From Deinococcales bacterium (GTDB taxonomy: Bacteria; Deinococcota; Deinococci; Deinococcales; JAAFIG01): a stretch of DNA of 16,553 bases. Below, piece by piece: positions 236 to 13,077 of the stretch. The notes beneath the pieces were generated by a model that saw only the letters and a list, made by a program, of their open reading frames with translations, did no database searches and was not told the origin of the DNA. Every line of letters starts with the position of its first letter. The stretch's first letter is position 1. The stretch spans positions 1 to 16,553 of the forward strand of contig JAYWGM010000081.1 of the NCBI GenBank assembly GCA_043778225.1. The letters are read 5' to 3'. The position numbers were made by a program, and so were the translations under genes.

Positions 236-1630
236 TTATTTTTCGTCGGTTTCGATACGGTTAAAGCCTTTTGGCGCACCAACTTTATTGGCAATTACTT
301 CCTCGAGGTACTTGACCACATTTTTAAGCGGCACACGGTTCAGCACATCCTCGAGAAACGCCGTGACCAGCATTTTCTCAGCAATGGGTTTGGTAATCCC
401 TCTCGAGCGCAAATAGAACAGTTCTTGTTCATCCACTGGCGCGGTGGTGCTGCCGTGGCTACAACGCACATCGTTGGCGTTAATCTCGAGTTGCGGCACA
501 CTGTCCGAACGGGCTTCGTCGGAAAGCAATAATGTGCGGTTCTTCTGGTAGGCATCGGTTTTTTGTGCGTTTAATTCGACTTTGATTAGCCCCGAAAACA
601 CGCCCCTTGCTTGGTCTGCCAGTACACCCTTAAAGAGCAAATCCGAATGCGCCCGAGGCATAATGTGATGCTGCAAAGTCTGCTGGTCAAAGTGCTGGTC
701 TTTATCAGCAAAGTAAATTGCCAGCATTTCCGAACTCGAATTGGTTTGCAAAGCACTTTGCACCTCGGTTCTGGACAGGCTCGAACCCATTGTTACATAC
801 AAACTATTCAGTACCGCATCCGACTCGAGGTTTGACTTGATGCGCTGAATGTGGGTCACACCACGACCCCAGTTTTGAATTGCCACATAACGCAAATTTG
901 CACCTTTACCAAGGAAAAGTTCAACCACACCAAAATTAGCTGATTTGAGGTCTGGGCTGTCCTGCTCGTCAATATAAGTGACCTTGGCATTCTCCTCGAG
1001 AACCACGAGTGTGCGCGAAGCCACAAAAGCACCGTCCTGCTCGAGATAACGAAAACCACCAAGTGGCAAGTCAAGCTCGACATTTTTTGGCACATACAAG
1101 AAAAAACCGTTCTCCCAAAAAGCAGCGTTTAACGCCGTGAACTTATCTTCGTCCAAATGCGGAATATGTTCATACCGCTCGAGGGCAAGGGCGCTTGGGT
1201 CTGGGTACGCCGCGCCAACCACACTGTACAAATACTTCTGTACAAGGTCTGGGTGTTTCTCGAGGGCGGTTTTGAGGTCTGTAAAAATAACGCCCTTCGA
1301 CTCGAGTTCAGACGGCACATCCGAGTAAATAACAGAATTACCAGACAGCACAATGCGACCAGCCGCATCGGTGCTAGACAAACGCTCACGAATTTTTTCA
1401 GGTAGTGCCTCGAGACTGCTGATTGGGCTAACGGCATTGGCTGGAACGAAATTCTCGGGTTTGAAACGCCGCAGATTCGTGTACTTCCACGCTTCGACTG
1501 CTGTAGAAGGCACAGCGCGGTCAGTGTAAATCTCGAGGGCAGAAGCTCGAGCTTTGAGCAGCCATGCGGGTTCGGCACGGCTCGAGATGGCGGAAAGATT
1601 GAAGGGCGATAGGGTGGTTACTTGGGTCAT
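236..1630 (-). CDS. sufD: Fe-S cluster assembly protein SufD
   Basis: EAWKYTNL N-terminal motif; beta-helix with QKTDAYQKNRTLLLS, PQLEINANDVRCSHGST and LFYLRSRGI. Start placed at ATG 1630 behind an AGGAG RBS (ORF track extends to 1696). Confidence 0.93.
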   Translation of the reverse strand: MTQVTTLSPFNLSAISSRAEPAWLLKARASALEIYTDRAVPSTAVEAWKYTNLRRFKPENFVPANAVSPISSLEALPEKIRERLSSTDAAGRIVLSGNSVIYSDVPSELESKGVIFTDLKTALEKHPDLVQKYLYSVVGAAYPDPSALALERYEHIPHLDEDKFTALNAAFWENGFFLYVPKNVELDLPLGGFRYLEQDGAFVASRTLVVLEENAKVTYIDEQDSPDLKSANFGVVELFLGKGANLRYVAIQNWGRGVTHIQRIKSNLESDAVLNSLYVTMGSSLSRTEVQSALQTNSSSEMLAIYFADKDQHFDQQTLQHHIMPRAHSDLLFKGVLADQARGVFSGLIKVELNAQKTDAYQKNRTLLLSDEARSDSVPQLEINANDVRCSHGSTTAPVDEQELFYLRSRGITKPIAEKMLVTAFLEDVLNRVPLKNVVKYLEEVIANKVGAPKGFNRIETDEK

Positions 1631-1655
1631 GATTGATTTTCTCCTAAAAGTGTTA

Positions 1656-2204
1656 TTACAAGCATCGGTTTTCCGTTTTTCCATCAAAGTAAACATGTTT
1701 TGAAGACACAGCTATAGTTCGGTCATTTGGCGTAAAAAACCCATTTTCTCGTGACAATGAATGGTCACTAAGGCAAGCACCTGCAAATTGACCTGAAGTC
1801 ACATCGTAGACCTGCCATTCCAAAGATGGATTTACACGTCGCGTAATTTGCGAGGCAGGGAATAGATCGTTAGGACGAATCTTAGGGTATTGGATACTAA
1901 AACTCCATTCAGAATTTGGCTCTGTATCAGCTTTTGACAAATCGTAAAAGGTGACATACACGACTTCTCCCACTTCGGGAACATTATAGATTAGTATTCG
2001 AGCATTTTTTATTTTTACCTCTTGAAAAGGGAAATCCTTATATCCATTTGGAGATGAAATCAATCGAGACAATAATTCGTTGACCGAAAAATCCAGTCTA
2101 CTTGCATTGGGCAAATTACCAGAACGAGCATAATAATAACGAGGAGGTTGCATACAAGAAACAAAAAGACAAAGAAGGCATATCACAATTAATTTTTTGG
2201 ACAT
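1656..2204 (-). CDS. Hypothetical lipoprotein (cassette cargo)
   Basis: 182 aa; MSKK, a hydrophobic stretch and a lipobox-like FVSC; no recognisable domain. Confidence 0.65.
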   Translation of the reverse strand: MSKKLIVICLLCLFVSCMQPPRYYYARSGNLPNASRLDFSVNELLSRLISSPNGYKDFPFQEVKIKNARILIYNVPEVGEVVYVTFYDLSKADTEPNSEWSFSIQYPKIRPNDLFPASQITRRVNPSLEWQVYDVTSGQFAGACLSDHSLSRENGFFTPNDRTIAVSSKHVYFDGKTENRCL

Positions 2205-2227
2205 AAAGTTTTCCAGTTTTATCTCGC

Positions 2228-2286
2228 GTAGGATGGGCTTTGCCCATCAACTTATATCCGACTATCTTCTATTTCTTTCTCGAGCC
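2228..2286. repeat. GTAG-REP-containing leader, copy 1 (GTAG-GATGGGC-TTT-GCCCATC) ending in a truncated cassette repeat
   Basis: Perfect 7-bp stem after GTAG (2228-2248); about 59 bp homologous to 4124-4181. Confidence 0.8.
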
Positions 2287-2289
2287 AAA

Positions 2290-2547
2290 TCACCTTTCGT
2301 AAATTTTGCTTCTATGCCCAACAGCGATGAGCGTCACCACCCGTTCTACTTCATTGACATTAAAAATCAGTCTGTAATCACCAACTCGAGTCCGAAATGA
2401 TTGTCGGTCTGTTAATTTAAGTACACCTTGCTTGAATGGATTCTCGAGAATAAGCTCAACTTCTTTAACAACCCTCTTTTGGATTTCCTCAGGTAAATCT
2501 TCAAACTCTTTATTAAAATGCTTGGAAAGTTGTAAAGCAAACCTCAT
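2290..2547 (-). CDS. relE: RelE/ParE-family type II toxin
   Basis: 85 aa with KL...FRTRVGDYRLIF...VGHRSKIY motifs; ATGA overlap with the upstream gene. Confidence 0.9.
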   Translation of the reverse strand: MRFALQLSKHFNKEFEDLPEEIQKRVVKEVELILENPFKQGVLKLTDRQSFRTRVGDYRLIFNVNEVERVVTLIAVGHRSKIYER

Positions 2548-2726
2548 TTTAAGCCCACTCGAGCCTGAAGTTCTTCAAGTGTTGTCGGGATTACTTCGTC
2601 GTTAGCACGTTCAATAAGAATTTGTTTGTGCCATGTCTCCTCGAGCATTTGTTCGTACTCCTCGAGTGGCAGTAAAACAAAGGTATTTCCTGTCTCATCT
2701 GTAATTTGCTGATGGGCTGTAAGCAT
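2544..2726 (-). CDS. Antitoxin partner of RelE (acidic, Phd/YefM-like VLL.LEEYE segment)
   Basis: 60 aa, acidic, translationally coupled upstream of relE, AAGGAG RBS; paralogous to 4463-4708. Confidence 0.75.
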   Translation of the reverse strand: MLTAHQQITDETGNTFVLLPLEEYEQMLEETWHKQILIERANDEVIPTTLEELQARVGLK

Positions 2727-2753
2727 TTTTATACTCCTTTCTTCTATTCTTTT

Positions 2754-2773
2754 CTCGAGCCTTGGCTGCTTGC
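2754..2773. repeat. Cassette-boundary repeat CTCGAGCCTTGGCTGCTTGC
   Basis: Exact consensus copy touching the vapC stop codon (2773-2775). Confidence 0.9.
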
Positions 2774-3180
2774 TAGGTTCTTTCTATCCAATTCTCGAGT
2801 CTCAAACCCCGAATTCTTGCAAAATGCTTTGTATTATCTGTCACCAGTACCGCTTGTTCGTATAAAGCAGTTGCAGCAATTAACGTGTCGGCATCTTCAA
2901 TAAGTTTTCCTTGGGGTTTAAGTTGTTGATAAATTTCGGATGCAGTATCTAAAATTTCTATGTTCAACATAATAATTTCAGCTTTGCTTAGAAAGGCTTT
3001 GAACTTACTAAGTTTTTTCTGGTATTTAGGAAGCGTTAAGCCTCGAGTAATTTCATAATAATTGATTGCGCTGATTATGAAAACATGACCATCATCATGT
3101 AGGAATTCAAGGGTTTTCACAACAACTTCGTTATCCTCGATAATGGCAGAAATAATATTTGTGTCAGGCAAGTATTTCAT
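2773..3180 (-). CDS. vapC: VapC PIN-domain toxin
   Basis: 135 aa with YLPDTNIIS, YYEITRGL, DADTLIAATAL and LVTDNTKHF. Confidence 0.92.
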   Translation of the reverse strand: MKYLPDTNIISAIIEDNEVVVKTLEFLHDDGHVFIISAINYYEITRGLTLPKYQKKLSKFKAFLSKAEIIMLNIEILDTASEIYQQLKPQGKLIEDADTLIAATALYEQAVLVTDNTKHFARIRGLRLENWIERT

Positions 3181-3434
3181 TGATTAGCTGCCCGCCAAGG
3201 TTGGCGTTTTATGGCTTCTTTGAATTCGGCTAAATCTTCGGCTGGCATCGGTTCGGCGAGTTCACGTAGGATTTGTTTGAATTCGTCTTTTTCAGCTTGC
3301 GTTCTTTGCGCTCGAACATCTGGCAAATCTGGATATTTGAAAGCGGGGTCTGAATCAATAACTTTTTTTAGGCGCTCGAGGGTGACTTCGTTCATTTGGT
3401 CTAAGCGTTGTGTAATTTCTTCGCGCATGGTCAT
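3177..3434 (-). CDS. Putative VapB-role antitoxin
   Basis: 85 aa from ATG 3434 (GAGGTG RBS); ATGA overlap with vapC; shares PDVR..RT..E...LAEP with three paralogues. Confidence 0.8.
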   Translation of the reverse strand: MTMREEITQRLDQMNEVTLERLKKVIDSDPAFKYPDLPDVRAQRTQAEKDEFKQILRELAEPMPAEDLAEFKEAIKRQPWRAANQ

Positions 3435-3453
3435 GGTTTCACCTCTGGCTTGA

Positions 3454-3552
3454 TTATAGGGCTTTAGCTCGAGCTTTGAGCAGCCATGCGGGTTTGGCAC
3501 GGCTCGAGATGGCGGCGGGGTTGAACGGCGATTGGGTGGTTAATTGGGTCAT
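3454..3552 (-). pseudogene. sufD: Truncated duplicate of the sufD 5' end (32 codons)
   Basis: Reads MTQLTTQSPFNPAAISSRAKPAWLLKARAKAL*; 3466-3552 matches 1544-1630 at 79/87 nt by hand alignment. Confidence 0.9.
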
Positions 3553-3559
3553 AATTACC

Positions 3560-4072
3560 TCAGAGACTAAAAACATCTTCAATCACAATATTCTTGAATC
3601 GTTCATCGAGATTGAATTTGACGGCTCGTATAACATCTGTTGGAATTGAAAAATAGACAAATAAGCCTTTACTGGAATTTGAATAGAAAGAGACCGATTC
3701 ATCATTATTAAACGAATCTACTGCCCCAGAAATTTGGTATGCAACGAATTTTTTTGAATCTGATGTTTCTATTGACATATATTTTGGTGATAAAATAGCT
3801 GTCACATCTCCTGATAAACTTGTCCAAGAAATGTCACACAGAACTTTAGACTTATCTGTGGGGTTTCGCAAGCAACCAGAAAACTCTACTTTTAGTTTGT
3901 TGCCTCGAGTATCGACATAGGTGATTGACCGCTTCGATTTTTCAATAATTGTTGCGTTACTCGAAGTGTTTGTACTATTGGTCACACTAGGGGATGTTGT
4001 AATCGAGTTCTGATTAGGCATACATCCTGTGAATACCATAGCGCCAATTACAGATATGATAATTTTTTTCAT
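3560..4072 (-). CDS. Hypothetical lipoprotein (cassette cargo)
   Basis: 170 aa; MKK, hydrophobic stretch, lipobox FTGC, S/T/N-rich linker, then a beta-rich domain; GGGAG RBS. Confidence 0.75.
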   Translation of the reverse strand: MKKIIISVIGAMVFTGCMPNQNSITTSPSVTNSTNTSSNATIIEKSKRSITYVDTRGNKLKVEFSGCLRNPTDKSKVLCDISWTSLSGDVTAILSPKYMSIETSDSKKFVAYQISGAVDSFNNDESVSFYSNSSKGLFVYFSIPTDVIRAVKFNLDERFKNIVIEDVFSL

Positions 4073-4123
4073 ATTTTTCTCCCAACACTTTACTTGACTT
4101 CTTTTTCTTGAGTTTCATCTCAT

Positions 4124-4193
4124 GTAGGATGGGCTTTACCCATCGAATTATAGCCGACTATCTTCTACTCTATCTCGAGCCTTGGCTGCTTGC
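4124..4193. repeat. GTAG-REP-containing leader, copy 2, plus a full cassette repeat (4174-4193)
   Basis: GTAGGATGGGCTTTACCCATC at 4124-4144; TATAAT on the minus strand; repeat abuts the relE stop at 4194. Confidence 0.85.
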
Positions 4194-4466
4194 TTATTTA
4201 TAAATATCTTTGCGCCTACCAACTTTTCTTACTTCTAGCACTTGTTCATCTCTTATAAAAATAATTCTTAAATCTCCGACTGCTAAACGATATTGTCCCT
4301 TAAATTCGCCTTTCATTTGCTTTATATCACCCATTGCTTCGGCGCACAGTATCAGCAACGCAGCCCATAGTTGTTCTTGTTCTAAACGTTCTAGCTTCCC
4401 AAATTCTTTAGCAGCTTTCTTAACAAAACGCAGTGCGTATGGCACATCTCGAGGGTGAATACTCAT
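4194..4466 (-). CDS. relE: RelE/ParE-family type II toxin
   Basis: 90 aa with GDIKQMKG...YRLAVGDLRIIF...VGRRKDIYK. Confidence 0.88.
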   Translation of the reverse strand: MSIHPRDVPYALRFVKKAAKEFGKLERLEQEQLWAALLILCAEAMGDIKQMKGEFKGQYRLAVGDLRIIFIRDEQVLEVRKVGRRKDIYK

Positions 4467-4708
4467 GGTTCTATTGGGAAGTTCTTGGGTAGTTCAAGTT
4501 GAGCTTGCAATTCCTCGGCACTGATGGTTTCATTGTTCTGACTTTCAATTACAGCTAGGCGTAAATCAGTTATGGCATCCTCGGTTAATTCTTCGTCGTC
4601 ATGGTCGTAAATACCATTTTGCTTTTTGAAAACCTCGTACTCCTCGAGCGACAAAAGTACAAAAGTTTGACCCGCTTCGTTGGTTAATTTTTCGTGAGCT
4701 GCTATCAT
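4463..4708 (-). CDS. Antitoxin partner of RelE
   Basis: Acidic; MIAAHEKLTNEAGQTFVLLSLEEYE aligns with 2544-2726; alternative start at 4720; ATGA overlap with relE. Confidence 0.75.
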   Translation of the reverse strand: MIAAHEKLTNEAGQTFVLLSLEEYEVFKKQNGIYDHDDEELTEDAITDLRLAVIESQNNETISAEELQAQLELPKNFPIEP

Positions 4709-4762
4709 TAGTTTAACCATCCTTTTTTTGTTTAACTCGAGCTACCTACATTTTATTCTTTT

Positions 4763-4782
4763 CTCGAGCCTTGGCTGCTTGC
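4763..4782. repeat. Cassette-boundary repeat
   Basis: Exact CTCGAGCCTTGGCTGCTTGC, 7 nt from the vapC stop at 4790. Confidence 0.9.
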
Positions 4783-4789
4783 TTATGCT

Positions 4790-5200
4790 TCACATAACGC
4801 CATCTTCCCAGTTTTCAAATCGAATTCCTATTACTCGAGAAAAATGCTTTACATTTCTGGTTATCAGTACGGCTTTATGGCGAATGGCTGTGGCTGCAAT
4901 GAGTGTATCGGAAATCCCAATGTCGTTTCCTGTGCTGGTCAATTCAAAATGGATGCTCGAGGCGGTATCAGCCGCTTCTTTGTCGAACCATAAACAGGGG
5001 TAAGTGTTGGCAAATTGCTCAAGCCGAGCAAGTTTGAGGGCATATTCGGGTTTGAGTAATCCTCGTTTGGCTTCCCAGAAAACGATGGGACTAAGAGTGA
5101 TTCGGTGAAGTTCCTGTACGGCGCGATTCAACCGAGCTTTACAGGCTTGATTTTCATTAATTATTTGTGAAACAAAATTAGTATCTAAAGTGTAAAACAT
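4790..5200 (-). CDS. vapC: VapC PIN-domain toxin
   Basis: 136 aa with YTLDTNFVS, FWEAKRGL, SDTLIAATA and LITRNVKHF. Confidence 0.92.
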   Translation of the reverse strand: MFYTLDTNFVSQIINENQACKARLNRAVQELHRITLSPIVFWEAKRGLLKPEYALKLARLEQFANTYPCLWFDKEAADTASSIHFELTSTGNDIGISDTLIAATAIRHKAVLITRNVKHFSRVIGIRFENWEDGVM

Positions 5201-5440
5201 TTATTTCTCGTATAACCAAGGACGGTCTCGTTTTAAGCCTTCGTTATATTCGGTTAAATCAATTCCAAGTGGTTCTGCAAGTGCTTCGGTAGCATCTAGT
5301 AAGGCTTGGGTTTCTTCTGGTGTCCGATTTTCTCGAATATCAGGGTATTCATCGTTTGCCTGTTCAATTTGCTTGATAAATTCGGCGTACTCAATTGGGT
5401 TTAGATTTTTGACTTGATGGACAATTTCAGCGACTGACAT
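5201..5440 (-). CDS. Putative VapB-role antitoxin
   Basis: 79 aa from ATG 5440 (GGGGG RBS); stop directly abuts the vapC ATG; YPDIRENRTPEE...LAEP motif. Confidence 0.78.
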   Translation of the reverse strand: MSVAEIVHQVKNLNPIEYAEFIKQIEQANDEYPDIRENRTPEETQALLDATEALAEPLGIDLTEYNEGLKRDRPWLYEK

Positions 5441-5482
5441 AAAACCCCCTTTGCTTCTTTGATTGTAACGCTTTTTAATTTT

Positions 5483-5502
5483 CTCGAGCCTTGACTGTTT
5501 GC
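5483..5502. repeat. Cassette-boundary repeat (degenerate)
   Basis: CTCGAGCCTTGACTGTTTGC, 18/20 to consensus. Confidence 0.8.
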
Positions 5503-5511
5503 CAATGCCAA

Positions 5512-5550
5512 TCAATTCTTATAAACCTTGCTCCGATGCCTTACCGTGCT
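5512..5550 (-). pseudogene. C-terminal scar of a deleted RelE-type toxin
   Basis: Reads STVRHRSKVYKN* versus IAVGHRSKIYER* of the RelE at 2290; followed by a boundary repeat. Confidence 0.6.
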
Positions 5551-5964
5551 TTATTCACGGCTATCTTCGATCCAATTTTCGAGCCTGATGTTTGGTACTC
5601 GAGCAAAATGCTTGGTGTTATTCGTAATGACTACTGCTTGATGCCGAATGCCTGTAGCTGCAATTTTGACATCTTCTTTGTCGAGTTGTAAACCTTGTAT
5701 TTCTAAAGTGTGGTAAATATCGGCTGCATACTCGGCAGATAAAGCATCAAAAGGTAAAACCCTGAACTTATTTGTTAATTTTTTTAAGGCAGCTAATTTT
5801 TTGAAAAGTTGTGGTTTTAATAAACCTCGTTTGACTTCAAAGTACGAAACTGCGTTCATGGTGATGTCGTGACCCTCAAAGGCTTTGATATGAACAAACA
5901 TTTCAAGCGCATGATTTTCATTCACAATTCCAGAGATGGTATCTGCATCCAAAGTATAAAGCAC
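5551..5964 (-). CDS. vapC: VapC PIN-domain toxin
   Basis: GTG start at 5964 behind an AAGGA RBS; LYTLDADTIS, YFEVKRGL, EDVKIAATG and VITNNTKHF. Confidence 0.9.
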   Translation of the reverse strand: MLYTLDADTISGIVNENHALEMFVHIKAFEGHDITMNAVSYFEVKRGLLKPQLFKKLAALKKLTNKFRVLPFDALSAEYAADIYHTLEIQGLQLDKEDVKIAATGIRHQAVVITNNTKHFARVPNIRLENWIEDSRE

Positions 5965-5971
5965 ATTTTCC

Positions 5972-6187
5972 TTAACGCTGCATGGCTGCATTGAACAGAT
6001 TTTTTTCTTCTGTGGTCATTGGTGCGGCAAGTTCAGCCAATAACGTTTTGATTTCCTGCATTTCTTCTGGGCTGCGCTCAACTCGGACATCTGGATATTC
6101 GTATGACTCGAGAATTTTGTTCAACCATTCAATTCGCTCAGACGACATTGTTTCTATTTTTTGGTGTAGTTGTTCTTTGGTACTCAT
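5972..6187 (-). CDS. Putative VapB-role antitoxin
   Basis: 71 aa; YPDVRVERSPEE...LAAP; GAGGTG RBS; directly upstream of vapC. Confidence 0.8.
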   Translation of the reverse strand: MSTKEQLHQKIETMSSERIEWLNKILESYEYPDVRVERSPEEMQEIKTLLAELAAPMTTEEKNLFNAAMQR

Positions 6188-6224
6188 GATTTCACCTCTG
6201 GCTTTATTCTAGCGCTTTTACTAG

Positions 6225-6244
6225 CTCGAGCCTTGGCTGCTTAC
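6225..6244. repeat. Cassette-boundary repeat
   Basis: CTCGAGCCTTGGCTGCTTAC, 19/20 to consensus; abuts the stop at 6245. Confidence 0.88.
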
Positions 6245-6469
6245 TCATGCAAACTCGAGTTCGGCTGTTCTGCCCGCACTTGGGTCTTGTTCCACCAATG
6301 CCCGCACTAGCGTCTCGAGCCGCAATGCTACGCCCATACTATGCGCTCTGAGTTCTTCACCATCTGGTAAATGATGGATATGGGTTGGAACTCCTTTTAT
6401 TGTGACATGAACTCCTTCTCGAGTAGTAATTTTATAATCCATTTTAACTTCATTAAGAATTTGACTCAT
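6245..6469 (-). CDS. YgiT/MqsA-like (cysteine-less) putative antitoxin
   Basis: 74 aa from ATG 6469 (AAGGAG RBS); G.V.I.GVP...GEE...VA..LE.L pattern; downstream of a DUF4258-like gene. Confidence 0.65.
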   Translation of the reverse strand: MSQILNEVKMDYKITTREGVHVTIKGVPTHIHHLPDGEELRAHSMGVALRLETLVRALVEQDPSAGRTAELEFA

Positions 6470-6477
6470 TTCGCTCC

Positions 6478-6792
6478 TTAAATTGTATGAACTGTAATAA
6501 CTAAGAAGTTGTTGACCCAAGCCACTTTGGTACGAATCCAGCGCCCATCTGCAATTTTATACTCAAAATTAATTCCTGGAATGCGTTTGTTGGAATTTCG
6601 CGGTAAATCTTTACTTACGGGTGTACCTACTAAAATAGTCTCGAGAACAGCAACAAGTGGAATTTTTTCTTTATTGGCTTCTTCTTGGGCGTGTTCGCTA
6701 ATTTGAATTTCTTGGAAAATAAGGGCTTGGTGAATTGCGTCTAATTCTGATTGGAGTATTTCTGGTGTTGAAAAATTGAATGGGTTTCTCAT
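6478..6792 (-). CDS. DUF4258-like putative toxin
   Basis: 104 aa with ISEHAQEE...I....V.E.I..G and C-terminal LVITVH, typical of DUF4258. Confidence 0.75.
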   Translation of the reverse strand: MRNPFNFSTPEILQSELDAIHQALIFQEIQISEHAQEEANKEKIPLVAVLETILVGTPVSKDLPRNSNKRIPGINFEYKIADGRWIRTKVAWVNNFLVITVHTI

Positions 6793-6881
6793 AAATTATT
6801 ACTTACCAAAACCTTTGTGCGTACAACCTGATCTTTTTTGAGCATTGCACTGATGGTATTAGAATCGAGCAAGTAAATCAT
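6789..6881 (-). pseudogene. vapC: Truncated vapC (first ~25 codons only)
   Basis: MIYLLDSNTISAMLKKDQVVRTKVLVSNNL* carries the PIN N-terminal motif; ATGA-coupled to the upstream antitoxin. Confidence 0.8.
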
Positions 6882-7120
6882 TGAATCTCTCGGCTATGGG
6901 GGCGGCGTTCTAGGGCTTCAAGCAACGGATTAATATTTTCGTTTGGCTGAGTTGCCGTAAAAGCATCTAAACGCTGATTAAAAAGCGCTATTTCCTCTGG
7001 GGTTCGTTGCACTCGCACATGAGCAGCTTGACGATGTTGGGTCAGGAGCGTATTCAACCACTCGAGGTCAGCTTGGCTCATGGTGTCAATGGTTTGTTTT
7101 ACTTCTTCTCGAGTTATCAT
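6878..7120 (-). CDS. Putative VapB-role antitoxin (toxin partner truncated)
   Basis: 80 aa, paralogous to 5972-6187 (I.TMS....EWLN, VRV.R.PEE); same GAGGTGAAATC-ATG leader. Confidence 0.78.
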   Translation of the reverse strand: MITREEVKQTIDTMSQADLEWLNTLLTQHRQAAHVRVQRTPEEIALFNQRLDAFTATQPNENINPLLEALERRPHSREIQ

Positions 7121-7160
7121 GATTTCACCTCTAGCTTTATTGTAGCGTTTTTATGATTTT

Positions 7161-7180
7161 CTCAAGCCTTGGCTGCAAGC
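7161..7180. repeat. Cassette-boundary repeat (degenerate, CTCAAG core)
   Basis: CTCAAGCCTTGGCTGCAAGC, 17/20 to consensus; 1 nt from the stop at 7182. Confidence 0.8.
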
Positions 7181-7181
7181 T

Positions 7182-7406
7182 TTATGTAAACTCGAGTTCA
7201 GCGCGTCTGCCCGCACTTGGGTCTTGGGCTACCACGGCTTTAACCAATGCCTCAAGCTTGAGTGCCACCGCAAAACTATGTGTTTGTAGTTCCTCTCCAT
7301 TTTCGTAATGGCGTAAACGAGTTGGAACACCTGTAATTTTAACGTACACACCTTCGGGAGTGGTCACGTCGTATTCCATTTTGATTTCGTTCAGAATTTG
7401 GCTCAT
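7182..7406 (-). CDS. Orphan YgiT/MqsA-like putative antitoxin
   Basis: 74 aa; 49/74 identical to 6245-6469 by hand alignment; no DUF4258-like gene upstream. Confidence 0.7.
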   Translation of the reverse strand: MSQILNEIKMEYDVTTPEGVYVKITGVPTRLRHYENGEELQTHSFAVALKLEALVKAVVAQDPSAGRRAELEFT

Positions 7407-7454
7407 AGGTTCTACCTTCATTTGGAGTTTAGCGCCTTTGGTTTTTCAAAATCA

Positions 7455-7784
7455 TTATATCATTTCAAGGATTTTATCCGATATAAGTTTTGTTTCAGCA
7501 ATGACTTTTTGTTGTTGGAGTTGACTTTCCCATGTTGTTGCCCAAGTCAATTGCCATTGCGCGAGTTGGATTTGATATTGCACCAGAATTTCTGAAATTT
7601 CAGGTGTTGTTTCAGTAGCAGTCCATTCAATAAAACGTACACTTTCAGCTAATAAGTTTCGTACACTTTCTGAAGTATTTTTCTTGGCAAATACACTCAC
7701 TCGGTTGAGATTAACTGCCAAATTGCCAAGTCGTCTCGAGATTGGGTCTTTAACAAATTTTTCTTTTCGAGCGTATTCGGTCAT
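7455..7784 (-). CDS. Hypothetical helical protein (type recalled as a DUF5674 neighbour)
   Basis: 109 aa, RLGNLAVNLNRV...ES..FIEWTA...Q.QLA.WQ; AGGAG RBS. Family link is from recall only. Confidence 0.65.
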   Translation of the reverse strand: MTEYARKEKFVKDPISRRLGNLAVNLNRVSVFAKKNTSESVRNLLAESVRFIEWTATETTPEISEILVQYQIQLAQWQLTWATTWESQLQQQKVIAETKLISDKILEMI

Positions 7785-7888
7785 GGTTTTACTCCTGCAA
7801 AGAGTTTTGTAACTATTTCTTGGATTTGTTGTCGCAAAGTAGGGTCTTGTACTGGAGTGACTTTTTCTTGAATAATTTGGATGCTCAT
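7781..7888 (-). pseudogene. 35-aa ORF, probable internally deleted DUF5674-like gene
   Basis: MSIQIIQEKVTP-VQDPTLRQQIQEIVTKLFAGVKP*; ATGA overlap with the next gene; looks like the N- and C-termini of DUF5674 joined. Confidence 0.5.
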
Positions 7889-7900
7889 GATGTCCAATTT

Positions 7901-7923
7901 GGGGTTTGCAAAATGCAAACCCC
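7901..7923. terminator. Perfect hairpin after sufB (terminator or mRNA-stabilising stem)
   Basis: GGGGTTTGCA-AAA-TGCAAACCCC, a 10-bp stem 7 nt after the sufB stop; no good U-tract on the minus strand. Confidence 0.55.
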
Positions 7924-7930
7924 TTAAATT

Positions 7931-9361
7931 CTAGCCGACGCTGCCTTCCATCTCGAGTTCAATTAAGCGGTTGAGTTCCACGGCGTACTCGAGTGGGAGT
8001 TCTTTGGCGATGGGTTCGATGAATCCGCGTACAATCAGTCCTGTTGCGGCTTCCTCGGACAACCCTCGAGACATGAGGTAGAACACTTGTTCATCGTTAA
8101 TTTTAGAAACGGTGGCTTCATGTCCAACCGAAGCAGTTTTTTCTTCAATTTCGATGTACGGGTACGTGTCAGTTCGGCTGTCATCATTTAACAAGAGCGC
8201 GTCGCATTCGACGTTGCTTTTGGCATTTTTTGCCCCGTCATAAATTTTGACTAACCCACGGTAACTCGAGCGACCATTGTTTTTGCTAATGCTTTTAGAC
8301 ACGATGCTCGAGCTTGTGTTGGGTGCAAAATGCACAACTTTGCCACCAGCGTCTTGGTGTTGCCCTGTGGTTGCCATGGCAATGCTCAGAATCTCGCCAC
8401 GAGCGCCCGGCTCGAGCAAATACGTGGCTGGGTATTTCATGGTGACTTTGCTGCCGAGGTTGCCATCCACCCATTCCATGACTGCGCCTTCGTAGACGGC
8501 TGCCCGTTGGGTCACAAGATTGTAAACATTGTGCGACCAGTTTTGAATCGTGCTGTAACGCATCCGAGCGCCTTTTTTGACAATAATTTCGATGACACCA
8601 GAGTGGAAGCTGTCCGAGGAGTAACTAGGTGCGGTGCAACCTTCGATGTAATGGGCGTAAGCACCTTCATCAATAATAATCAGGGTGCGTTCAAATTGCC
8701 CAGAATTTTCGGCATTAATCCGAAAATACGTTTGCAATGGCACTTCGACTTTTACACCTTTTGGCACATATACAAAGCTACCACCAGACCAAACGGCGCT
8801 GTTGACGGCGGCAAATTTATTGTCTTCGGGCGGAATGACTGTGCCAAAGTGTTCACGGAAGAGTTCTGGATGTTCACGCATTCCATCTTCGATAGACAAA
8901 AATATCACACCGAGCTTTTCCCATTCTTCTTTCAGGTTGTGGTAGACCATTTCTGATTCGTATTGAGCGCCAACACCTGCCAGCATTCCGCGTTCGGATT
9001 CTGGAATACCAAGTTTATCAAAAGTGCGTTTAATATCGTCTGGAACATCGTCCCAAGTTCGACTGTTGAGCATATCGGTGGGTTTGATGTAATAATAAAT
9101 GTTCTCGAGGTCAAGCCCACTTAAATCTGCGCCCCATTTTGGAATTGGTTTGCTGCGGTAAATGTCGAGCGCTTTCATGCGAAACTCGAGCATCCAAGCG
9201 GGTTCGTCTTTGGATTTACTAATCAGTTCAACCACGTCTCGAGATAAGCCTTTGGGGGCTTTAATCGTGTATTTTTCTGGTTCTGACCAGCCAAATTCGT
9301 AACCATCGTTAATTTTTCCAACGGCGGCATCGGGGATGTTATCGGAGTATTGTTGGGTCAT
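7931..9361 (-). CDS. sufB: Fe-S cluster assembly protein SufB
   Basis: 476 aa with GVGAQYESE, DNKFAAVNSAVWSGGSF, GQFERTLII, YIEGCTAP, HEATVSKI and ELEMEGSVG. Confidence 0.97.
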   Translation of the reverse strand: MTQQYSDNIPDAAVGKINDGYEFGWSEPEKYTIKAPKGLSRDVVELISKSKDEPAWMLEFRMKALDIYRSKPIPKWGADLSGLDLENIYYYIKPTDMLNSRTWDDVPDDIKRTFDKLGIPESERGMLAGVGAQYESEMVYHNLKEEWEKLGVIFLSIEDGMREHPELFREHFGTVIPPEDNKFAAVNSAVWSGGSFVYVPKGVKVEVPLQTYFRINAENSGQFERTLIIIDEGAYAHYIEGCTAPSYSSDSFHSGVIEIIVKKGARMRYSTIQNWSHNVYNLVTQRAAVYEGAVMEWVDGNLGSKVTMKYPATYLLEPGARGEILSIAMATTGQHQDAGGKVVHFAPNTSSSIVSKSISKNNGRSSYRGLVKIYDGAKNAKSNVECDALLLNDDSRTDTYPYIEIEEKTASVGHEATVSKINDEQVFYLMSRGLSEEAATGLIVRGFIEPIAKELPLEYAVELNRLIELEMEGSVG

Positions 9362-9720
9362 AAAGCTCCTTGTGAGGCAGGGGTTTTCTCGAGAATGCTG
9401 ATGAACTCTGTATAGCCGAAATCATCCATCATGCCGTTTGAACCGTACTGATAGACACGCAACTTGTATTGAAATCCAGCTTCGTGGGTAAAACCTTTAA
9501 TTGAACCATGAAAAAAAGTATTGCTGACGGAAGTATCGCGGACTTGGATGCAGTTCTGGATAGATTCTGGTGGGGCTGATGGACGTGGGTCGGTGTAGCC
9601 GCCAAAGCCTCCTGAACAAGGCTTGGTCTGTGCTGCGACTTCAACGGTTTTTACAGTCACACTGCGAACATTACAAGCAACCAAAGCTAACGCCAACGGA
9701 ACAAAAAATCTTATCTTCAT
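9358..9720 (-). CDS. DUF4377-like lipoprotein
   Basis: 120 aa from ATG 9720 (GGAGG RBS); lipobox LVAC; CIQVR...IKGFTHEAGFQYKLRV resembles DUF4377; ATGA overlap with sufB. Confidence 0.7.
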   Translation of the reverse strand: MKIRFFVPLALALVACNVRSVTVKTVEVAAQTKPCSGGFGGYTDPRPSAPPESIQNCIQVRDTSVSNTFFHGSIKGFTHEAGFQYKLRVYQYGSNGMMDDFGYTEFISILEKTPASQGAL

Positions 9721-9762
9721 ATTGCCTCCACTTTGAATTGCCTGCAAAACTTGCTCGAGAAT

Positions 9763-13056: not shown

Positions 13057-13077
13057 GTAGTATGGGCTTTTGCCATC
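13057..13077. repeat. Degenerate GTAG-REP copy
   Basis: GTAGTATGGGCTTTTGCCATC versus GTAGGATGGGCTTTGCCCATC at 2228. Confidence 0.6.

Follow-up and report, generated by a model that had tools for sequence, protein, structure and literature searches.

Background

Integrase-free hotspots of horizontal gene transfer that are flanked by core genes were described by Oliveira et al. 2017 (PMC5635113). In cyanobacteria, the palindrome HIP1 (GCGATCGC) has been tied to excision, recombination and transformation, and its active recognition has been suggested (PMC4390886, PMC5861425, PMC13756078; 10.1101/2024.09.10.611283); HIP1-flanked excision is cited as such in PMC13756078. Homology-facilitated illegitimate recombination (HFIR), finally, combines a homologous anchor with a joint of 3-10 bp (PMC6382021). 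Here we analyse a locus that resembles each of these systems in part, namely, an array of small toxin-antitoxin (TA) genes between sufB and sufD on a 16,553-nt contig of a Deinococcales bacterium (JAYWGM010000081.1; this whole stretch is referred to as the window), in which a 20-bp repeat ending in CTCGAG, hereafter the linker, recurs between modules. The locus is likely to be a hotspot anchored by core genes and free of an integrase, in which joints fall preferentially at an iterated palindrome. In the literature searched, excluding supplements, we found no description of CTCGAG as a highly iterated palindrome in Deinococcota, or of the suf locus and its repeat. The genome of the window is designated G000 (4.03 Mb), its family relatives G001 and so on; g1 and g5 are genera and f1 is the family.

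The linker is confined to the suf locus

The sufB-sufD gap in the window consists of 6.3 kb of small genes, all on the minus strand. It contains three PIN/VapC toxins and two RelE/ParE-like toxins with their antitoxin-like partners, as well as a DUF4258 gene, two genes of family F4, a broken DUF5674 gene with its partner and two lipoprotein-like cargo genes. For F4 there is a weak YgiT-like lead only, and its best ESM Atlas match (0.87) is likewise to be taken as a lead only. With up to three mismatches allowed, the linker is found six times, at 2754, 4174 and 4763 (exact), 6225 (one mismatch), 5483 (two) and 7161 (three), whereas none of 200 shuffled sequences reached six matches, the largest shuffle count being zero. 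A shortened copy, CTCGAGCC, is present at 2279. Positions, mismatches and the single orientation are thus as reported in a first-pass annotation made from the sequence alone. That annotation had also placed every copy just behind a stop codon and ahead of the next leader. All six copies are scored as plus-strand matches, but the array genes themselves lie on the minus strand, and with this correction each copy follows the reading direction as a stop codon, then the 14-nt spacer, then CTCGAG and finally the next leader. For five of the six, the stop belongs to an intact gene and is indeed 0-7 nt away. The copy at 5483 departs from the rule: the PIN stop is at a distance of 48 nt, and the nearer stop, 9 nt away, is that of an orphan RelE 3′ remnant. 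At 3468, an 87-bp copy of the sufD 5′ region ends 2 nt past CTCGAG and forms an eighth joint, which the first-pass annotation did not list. The linker copies share 85-100% identity, compared with 24-66% for the paralogous array proteins, in agreement with the earlier observation that the repeat is the better conserved of the two.

Throughout G000, all four matches with zero or one mismatch are inside the window, as are five of seven with up to two mismatches and six of 20 with up to three. The 14 matches outside the window are scattered single look-alikes of the common CTCGAG, their gene context not having been inspected individually. When a degenerate linker pattern was run against all GTDB genomes, from which G000 was possibly left out, the one exact match came from the suf interval of G001; the same kind of search in viral contigs gave no match, and neither did a comparison of the linker copies with Rfam. 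Look-alikes in G005, G012, G001:C54 and G003:C104/C105 were rejected as chance matches outside arrays, and the match in G003:C30 is a true array piece. An assembly artefact was ruled out as well, positions 479-8477 being covered by one contig at even depth in two sequencing runs that are possibly the source of the genome. The full 20-mer is confined to the suf locus. The generic genome-wide repeat that the first-pass annotation had named as the contrary outcome is therefore found for the CTCGAG core but not for the linker as a whole.

CTCGAG is a highly iterated palindrome

No hexamer is more frequent in G000 than CTCGAG, with 6.17 copies per kb, or 26.7-fold over expectation, the next palindrome reaching 2.5-fold. 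On average there is one copy per 160 bp, and the window has 99 of them. The density is 6.1 per kb in coding DNA, where all three frames are used, and 5.4-7.9 per kb in intergenic DNA. Between G000 and G003, 673 of 1071 CTCGAG sites (63%) are kept, versus 30% for all hexamers. Six other sampled genomes of the family have 4.4-8.8 copies per kb; short samples of other families of the order range from 0 to 4.2 per kb, and CTCGAG was not found in three 4-kb samples of family f3. CTCGAG is, accordingly, a highly iterated palindrome in G000 and in Deinococcales family f1. Many methyltransferases are encoded in G000, none of which could be assigned as the CTCGAG cognate. A search for the XhoI endonuclease family had no match anywhere, controls included, and hence is uninformative.

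Array joints that coincide with CTCGAG

A census of genus g1 gave 16 linker copies in seven genomes. By manual reading of the listing, 11 of these come after an F4 gene end, complete or reduced to a trace, and five are joined directly to the stop of another gene. F4 and PIN homologues elsewhere in G000 carry CTCGAG in Leu-Glu end motifs; therefore, gene ends are primary and the intergenic linkers their remnants. The linker spacer derives from the 3′ flank of the F4 gene. This origin could be entirely passive. The linker would then be an F4 3′ spacer multiplied by unequal crossing-over and gene conversion, with no guiding role for CTCGAG, a hexamer that occurs every 160 bp, in intergenic DNA too, and in the conserved Leu-Glu ends of F4 and PIN homologues away from the array.

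Three observations argue against such a relic. The first is the behaviour of the flanks. Four types of sequence follow the linker CTCGAG on the right, namely, an F0 leader, an F1 leader (F0 and F1 being families of antitoxin-like genes), a PIN end and the terminal-slot leader. We measured left-right flank linkage, defined as the chance that two sites alike in their left flanks are also alike in their right flanks, around 33 (g1) and 39 (g5) CTCGAG sites near stop codons, a few of which actually lie inside genes. In g1 the linkage is 0.81-0.91 for cuts 8-16 nt to the left and falls to 0.26 at the hexamer and 0.18 at +8; in g5 it falls from 0.80-0.95 to 0.39 at the hexamer. In g1 it also dips to 0.52 at −20, near the stop codon. 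The second observation concerns orphan gene ends. Of 15 PIN-like and 23 F4-like rows, 17 have CTCGAG without mismatch where it is expected and were retained, the 21 dropped rows being near-matches or chance matches in genes; for 14 of the 17, homology to intact genes is lost no more than 7 nt upstream of CTCGAG. Third, homology of the sufD duplicate stops 2 nt past a CTCGAG (3468-3473), where an F0 leader takes over. CTCGAG thus bounds most of these orphan gene ends, the sufD duplicate and reassorted flanks at the array. Also at odds with a passive relic, CTCGAG contributes only 8.9% of all hexamer microhomologies.

The hexamer is enriched near the ends of the second genes of modules, 27 of 45 of which have CTCGAG within 25 nt of the stop, as compared with 10 of 50 first genes and 511 of 2543 long open reading frames (ORFs) genome-wide. 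The same count in G000 alone is five of eight for the suf array and three of 13 for stand-alone homologues. The recombination site proposed in the first-pass annotation is supported in part, in that the linker is specific to this locus, bounds reordered modules and has flanks reassorted at or just after CTCGAG.

The array is reshuffled among relatives

We examined 17 of the 18 other genomes of the family; the G012 interval, with sufB and sufD at contig ends, was left out. Modules of the same families are present after sufB or before sufD in 16 of the 17. There are 11 complete sufB-sufD intervals (G000 included), ranging from 1.4 to 6.3 kb, and the order of modules differs in all of them, with a variable cargo gene at the end. 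In G002 the interval is empty and sufB abuts sufD. G003 and G005 have unrelated genes after sufB, the array staying with sufD, and in G003 it is broken at an insertion sequence (IS)-like element. G003 and G005, with core genes 91% identical, share one array stretch at 98.3% identity. Genus g5 has a repeat of its own, composed of the F4 end, a T and CTCGAG; nine of its 11 matches are in the suf interval and the two elsewhere are chance matches.

The suf operon is not the only one affected. In the nuo (G000:C79) and gcv (G000:C98) operons, variable TA and accessory genes are found between nearly every pair of core genes, and G002 is compact at suf, nuo and gcv alike. Insertion into core operons therefore appears to be a habit of the lineage. 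Mapping of metagenome contigs, which covered four runs, showed that in two further metagenomes relatives' contigs join window position 2753 to 6225 and 6220 to 2752; the mapping was made at 85% likeness, so these contigs represent other organisms and not variants of the G000 strain. A metagenome scan with the SufD N-terminus retrieved distant homologues only (at most 36%) and no relatives.

How general is the preference for CTCGAG?

Several results speak against a precise or general use of CTCGAG as a joint. In strict breakpoint analysis, a shared CTCGAG within 10 nt was found at five of 48 clusters in g1 and none of 25 in g5, against a background of 3-4%. A looser run gave CTCGAG at 175 of 1046 sites versus 6% background. 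The automated ungapped remnant test returned 13 of 44, compared with a null of 22%. Gains and losses were also compared over 345 kb of G003 and G000, where most ends are at gene limits and all are open to alignment-extension bias: CTCGAG accompanies five of 102 ends at 12 nt (p 0.16; 2.8% expected), 12 at 20 nt (6.0%) and 20 at 30 nt (9.9%). Among second genes of the nuo and gcv operons, none of five in G000 (one row being off-frame) has CTCGAG near the stop, the count across the family being seven of 14. G002 has CTCGAG at 4.7-7.0 per kb, yet lacks the array. The divergence of most shared modules is similar to that of the core genes, so that recent transfer is shown only once. In addition, the orphan-end census was anchored on the sequence after the hexamer, and all counts come from related genomes and hence are not independent. 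The window itself contains deletions without CTCGAG at the joint, those of the RelE remnant and of the DUF5674 gene. Together with the many breakpoints that fall at start or stop codons or within genes, these deletions would suit the passive relic introduced above, which we regard as doubtful in view of the orphan ends, the sufD duplicate and the flank linkage in two genera. Even if that account is true, the array remains a clear record of gain and loss of TA modules inside an essential operon.

On balance, we lean slightly towards the view that the linker is a short-homology joint, or scar, of ordinary recombination biased to CTCGAG and not the site of a dedicated recombinase. According to this scenario, alleles of the sufB-sufD interval would arrive from relatives, probably by natural transformation; families ComEC and DprA are present. 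Homologous recombination, either in one of these two core genes or in a shared module, would anchor the incoming allele on one side, and the second joint would be illegitimate, preferring CTCGAG with a few matching neighbours, as in HFIR. A right-hand anchor in sufD would produce the sufD 5′ duplicate, and left-hand anchors or deletions the orphan 3′ ends. Modules might be lost by deletions that run from the CTCGAG of a linker to another one close to the end of a downstream gene, leaving behind the last 10-25 nt of that gene and its linker, which would explain both the stacked remnants and the linkers behind unrelated stops. Presumably, the share of CTCGAG among microhomologies is higher in the array than the overall figure, since the hexamer resides both in linkers and close to gene ends. 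Over repeated rounds of gain, loss and conversion, near-identical linkers could then come to stand behind unrelated stop codons, while the essential flanks and addiction modules may keep the interval compact and populated.

Dedicated recombination systems and regulatory functions

An array of this appearance invites comparison with integrons, and a dedicated system may be envisaged in which an unrecognised recombinase or methylation-dependent nicking treats the linker CTCGAG as a cassette attachment site, in the manner of IntI/attC. The layout is that of a superintegron: there are repeats between genes, which are genus-specific and follow stop codons, TA cassettes with −10-like boxes, and a variable, shuffled cassette order. 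HIP1 has been tied to site-specific recombination in Synechococcus in the part of PMC4390886 considered here, and G000 has its many methyltransferases and three tyrosine recombinases. The latter are on contigs other than that of the array, and two of them are phage-like.

The specific tests gave a different picture. None of the 19 family genomes, which are 57-94% complete, has a protein above the 265-bit cut-off of the integron integrase model TIGR02249 (best score, 62.5). The inverse core of attC has the pattern RYYYAAC. No such box follows any of eight module stops; matches to GTTRRRY are located 53-123 nt away, outside the linker. As single strands, five linker regions fold no better than shuffled sequences (z from −0.24 to +0.80). 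The attachment site proposed in the first-pass annotation is thus not supported in the integron sense. Nor did a recombinase ORF turn up, either in the window or among the gene families of the intervals examined; the intervals do contain an IS-like end (G003) and an RRXRR-HNH gene (G005). Furthermore, the exchange zone is spread over about 10 nt, many joints are elsewhere, and the linker tolerates substitutions and deletions. For these reasons we hold a dedicated system to be unlikely. As separate observations, the tyrosine recombinase G000:C75:51169-51681 is not linked to the array, with similar weak matches in most family genomes, including G002, and one Y1 transposase was found.

A broader proposal, tentative but to our mind somewhat less remote, is that CTCGAG is actively recognised, for example through methylation-directed nicking, and serves as a universal crossover for capturing, excising and reordering cassettes inside the suf operon, each genus having its own CTCGAG-ended repeat. 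The locus would then be a functional superintegron free of IntI and attC.

Repetitive extragenic palindromic (REP) sequences are short intergenic repeats, those of the GTAG type having a GTAG end and a hairpin. The linker is neither dispersed genome-wide nor able to form a hairpin, and does not belong to this class.

The linker might instead be kept by selection as a regulatory element: the array antitoxins might bind it as their operator, or it might belong to a promoter or be a site of RNA processing. Its spacer is recognisable across species whose core genes are 85-87% identical, and in F0 leaders it lies 9-16 nt upstream of −10-like boxes (TACAAT, TAGAAT or TATAAT). However, this spacing varies and the box is missing in two leaders. 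The small dyad noted in the first-pass annotation is intact in five of the six G000 copies but broken in nine of ten copies from relatives (intact in one), leaving six of 16 in the genus overall, so that the conserved inverted repeat of a TA operator is lacking. The repeat also precedes two unrelated antitoxin families as well as non-TA cargo, which makes the suggested shared operator improbable. A scan for promoters and terminators gave no excess over shuffles, with no minus-strand sigma-70 site or terminator at the copies and three weak terminator-like matches on the non-coding strand. With no fold and no Rfam match at the linker copies, and another spacer in use in genus g5, we judge a regulatory function very unlikely. 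CTCGAG as a −35 box was ruled out by its 9-16 nt distance to the −10-like box.

Organization of the array

From sufB to sufD, the features of the array are as follows, all of them on the minus strand except for the first hairpin, which is not assigned to a strand. The upstream core anchor sufB (7931..9361; Pfam SUFBD_core) is 91-99% identical within the family. Behind its stop there is a REP- or terminator-like hairpin (7901..7923) found at a single locus in the genome. It is followed by a DUF5674-family gene with an internal deletion (7781-7888) and its partner of family F3 (7455-7784), together spanning 7455..7888, and by an F4 gene, the partner of DUF4258 (7182..7406), ending in CTCGAG-TTTACA-TAA. 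The linker at 7161..7180 (17/20, core CTTGAG) separates this F4 gene from the leader of an F0 antitoxin, which has a TACAAT box. The next block (6789..7120) consists of that F0 antitoxin-like gene (6878-7120) and a 30-codon 5′ remnant of a PIN toxin (6789-6881), and the one after it (6245..6792) of the DUF4258 gene (6478-6792) and the other F4 gene (6245-6469), with a linker (6225..6244, 19/20) immediately past the F4 stop.

The central part begins with an F0 antitoxin-like gene (5972-6187) and a PIN/VapC toxin (5551-5964; module, 5551..6187), behind which are the orphan RelE/ParE 3′ remnant, consisting of ten codons and a stop (5512..5544), and a linker (5483..5502, 18/20). A second module of the same kind (4790..5440; F0 gene, 5201-5440; PIN/VapC toxin, 4790-5200) ends at an exact linker (4763..4782) preceded by a 6-nt trace of the F4 end. 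An F1 antitoxin-like gene (4463-4720) and a RelE/ParE-like toxin (4194-4466) form the module at 4194..4720, with an exact linker (4174..4193) immediately past the toxin stop. Then comes a terminal cargo-slot leader (4111..4173) comprising a PIN 3′ remnant, a TATAAT box and a GTAG-type hairpin (4124-4144), the terminal cargo gene of the first allele (3560..4072), which is lipoprotein-like and belongs to no family, and the 87-bp sufD 5′ duplicate (3466..3552), identical to 1544-1630 at 79 of 87 positions, behind which the second allele starts.

In the last part, an F0 antitoxin-like gene (3177-3434) is paired with a PIN/VapC toxin (2773-3180; module, 2773..3434) that has CTCGAG in its LENW end motif and a stop overlapping by 1 nt with an exact linker (2754..2773). 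A Phd/YefM-like antitoxin (2544-2726) and a ParE/RelE toxin (2290-2547) make up the module at 2290..2726. Next to it is the shortened linker TTTGG-CTCGAG (2279..2289), likely an internal deletion of the full form found after the same gene in G003. The second terminal-slot leader (2215..2278), with a GTAG-type hairpin (2228-2248), the terminal cargo gene of the second allele (1656..2204), again lipoprotein-like and without a family, and the downstream core anchor sufD (236..1630; Pfam) complete the array.

The GTAG-type hairpin with its TATAAT/TATAAG box (2228-2248 and 4124-4144; degenerate at 13057) is kept in g1 before the terminal cargo gene, and this leader may act as a promoter securing expression of sufD. 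In most genomes, the slot directly before sufD is occupied by a non-TA gene that differs from one genome to the next, with lipoprotein-like, trypsin-like, PLD-like, RRXRR-HNH and other genes found there. PADLOC matched neither of the two cargo genes of the window, and three of 14 proteins from relatives. An antitoxin-like gene with a retroviral-type aspartyl protease (PADLOC match PDC-M52B) is an array module in g3 and g5. On the other side of sufB, a DUF4377 gene (9358-9747) is inserted between sufC and sufB and overlaps the sufB start.

Comparison with known systems

Like the core-gene hotspots of PMC5635113, as far as that work is considered here, the suf array has variable genes between two conserved core genes, no integrase, and competence genes in the genome. 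It differs in being inside an essential operon and in consisting almost wholly of TA modules. Moreover, it is reshuffled internally at a repeated CTCGAG-ended linker, a type of repeat that the portion of PMC5635113 drawn on does not describe. HFIR would account for the joints, since one anchor and one short joint would suffice for the sufD 5′ duplicate as well as for the orphan 3′ ends; as presented in the sections of PMC6382021 used, however, it involves neither an iterated palindrome spread over the genome nor ordered TA arrays.

Superintegrons with VCR-type attC sites, going by the material taken from PMC8876359, share with the suf array species-specific near-identical repeats, TA cassettes with their own promoters and a variable order. 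In contrast, the array has no IntI and no GTTRRRY core, its repeats measure 20 bp instead of about 120 bp and form no hairpin, and it resides in the suf operon. REP sequences are likewise short intergenic repeats, and GTAG hairpins do occur in the array, at 2228 and 4124, but the linker has no GTAG end and no stable hairpin and is not dispersed. The suf array is thus superintegron-like in layout yet fails the integron tests, and its linker is neither a REP sequence nor a conserved operator. Because such a layout can exist without an integrase, layout alone is not enough to classify a repeat-bounded array as an integron.

The closest parallel to the hexamer itself is HIP1. Judging from the parts of the HIP1 literature cited above, both are single palindromes that are hyper-abundant in coding and non-coding DNA and conserved beyond other words, as the 63% versus 30% retention of CTCGAG illustrates. 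CTCGAG is a different word, a hexamer, in a different phylum, and here it marks the junctions within a gene array. What highly iterated palindromes do in cyanobacteria is still an open question. Another palindrome, in another phylum, that bounds natural gains and losses of genes at one locus offers a direct test of the idea that such palindromes are recombination joints, and if CTCGAG is indeed recognised as the crossover of cassettes, the suf array would show, in a natural setting, what purpose such palindromes serve.

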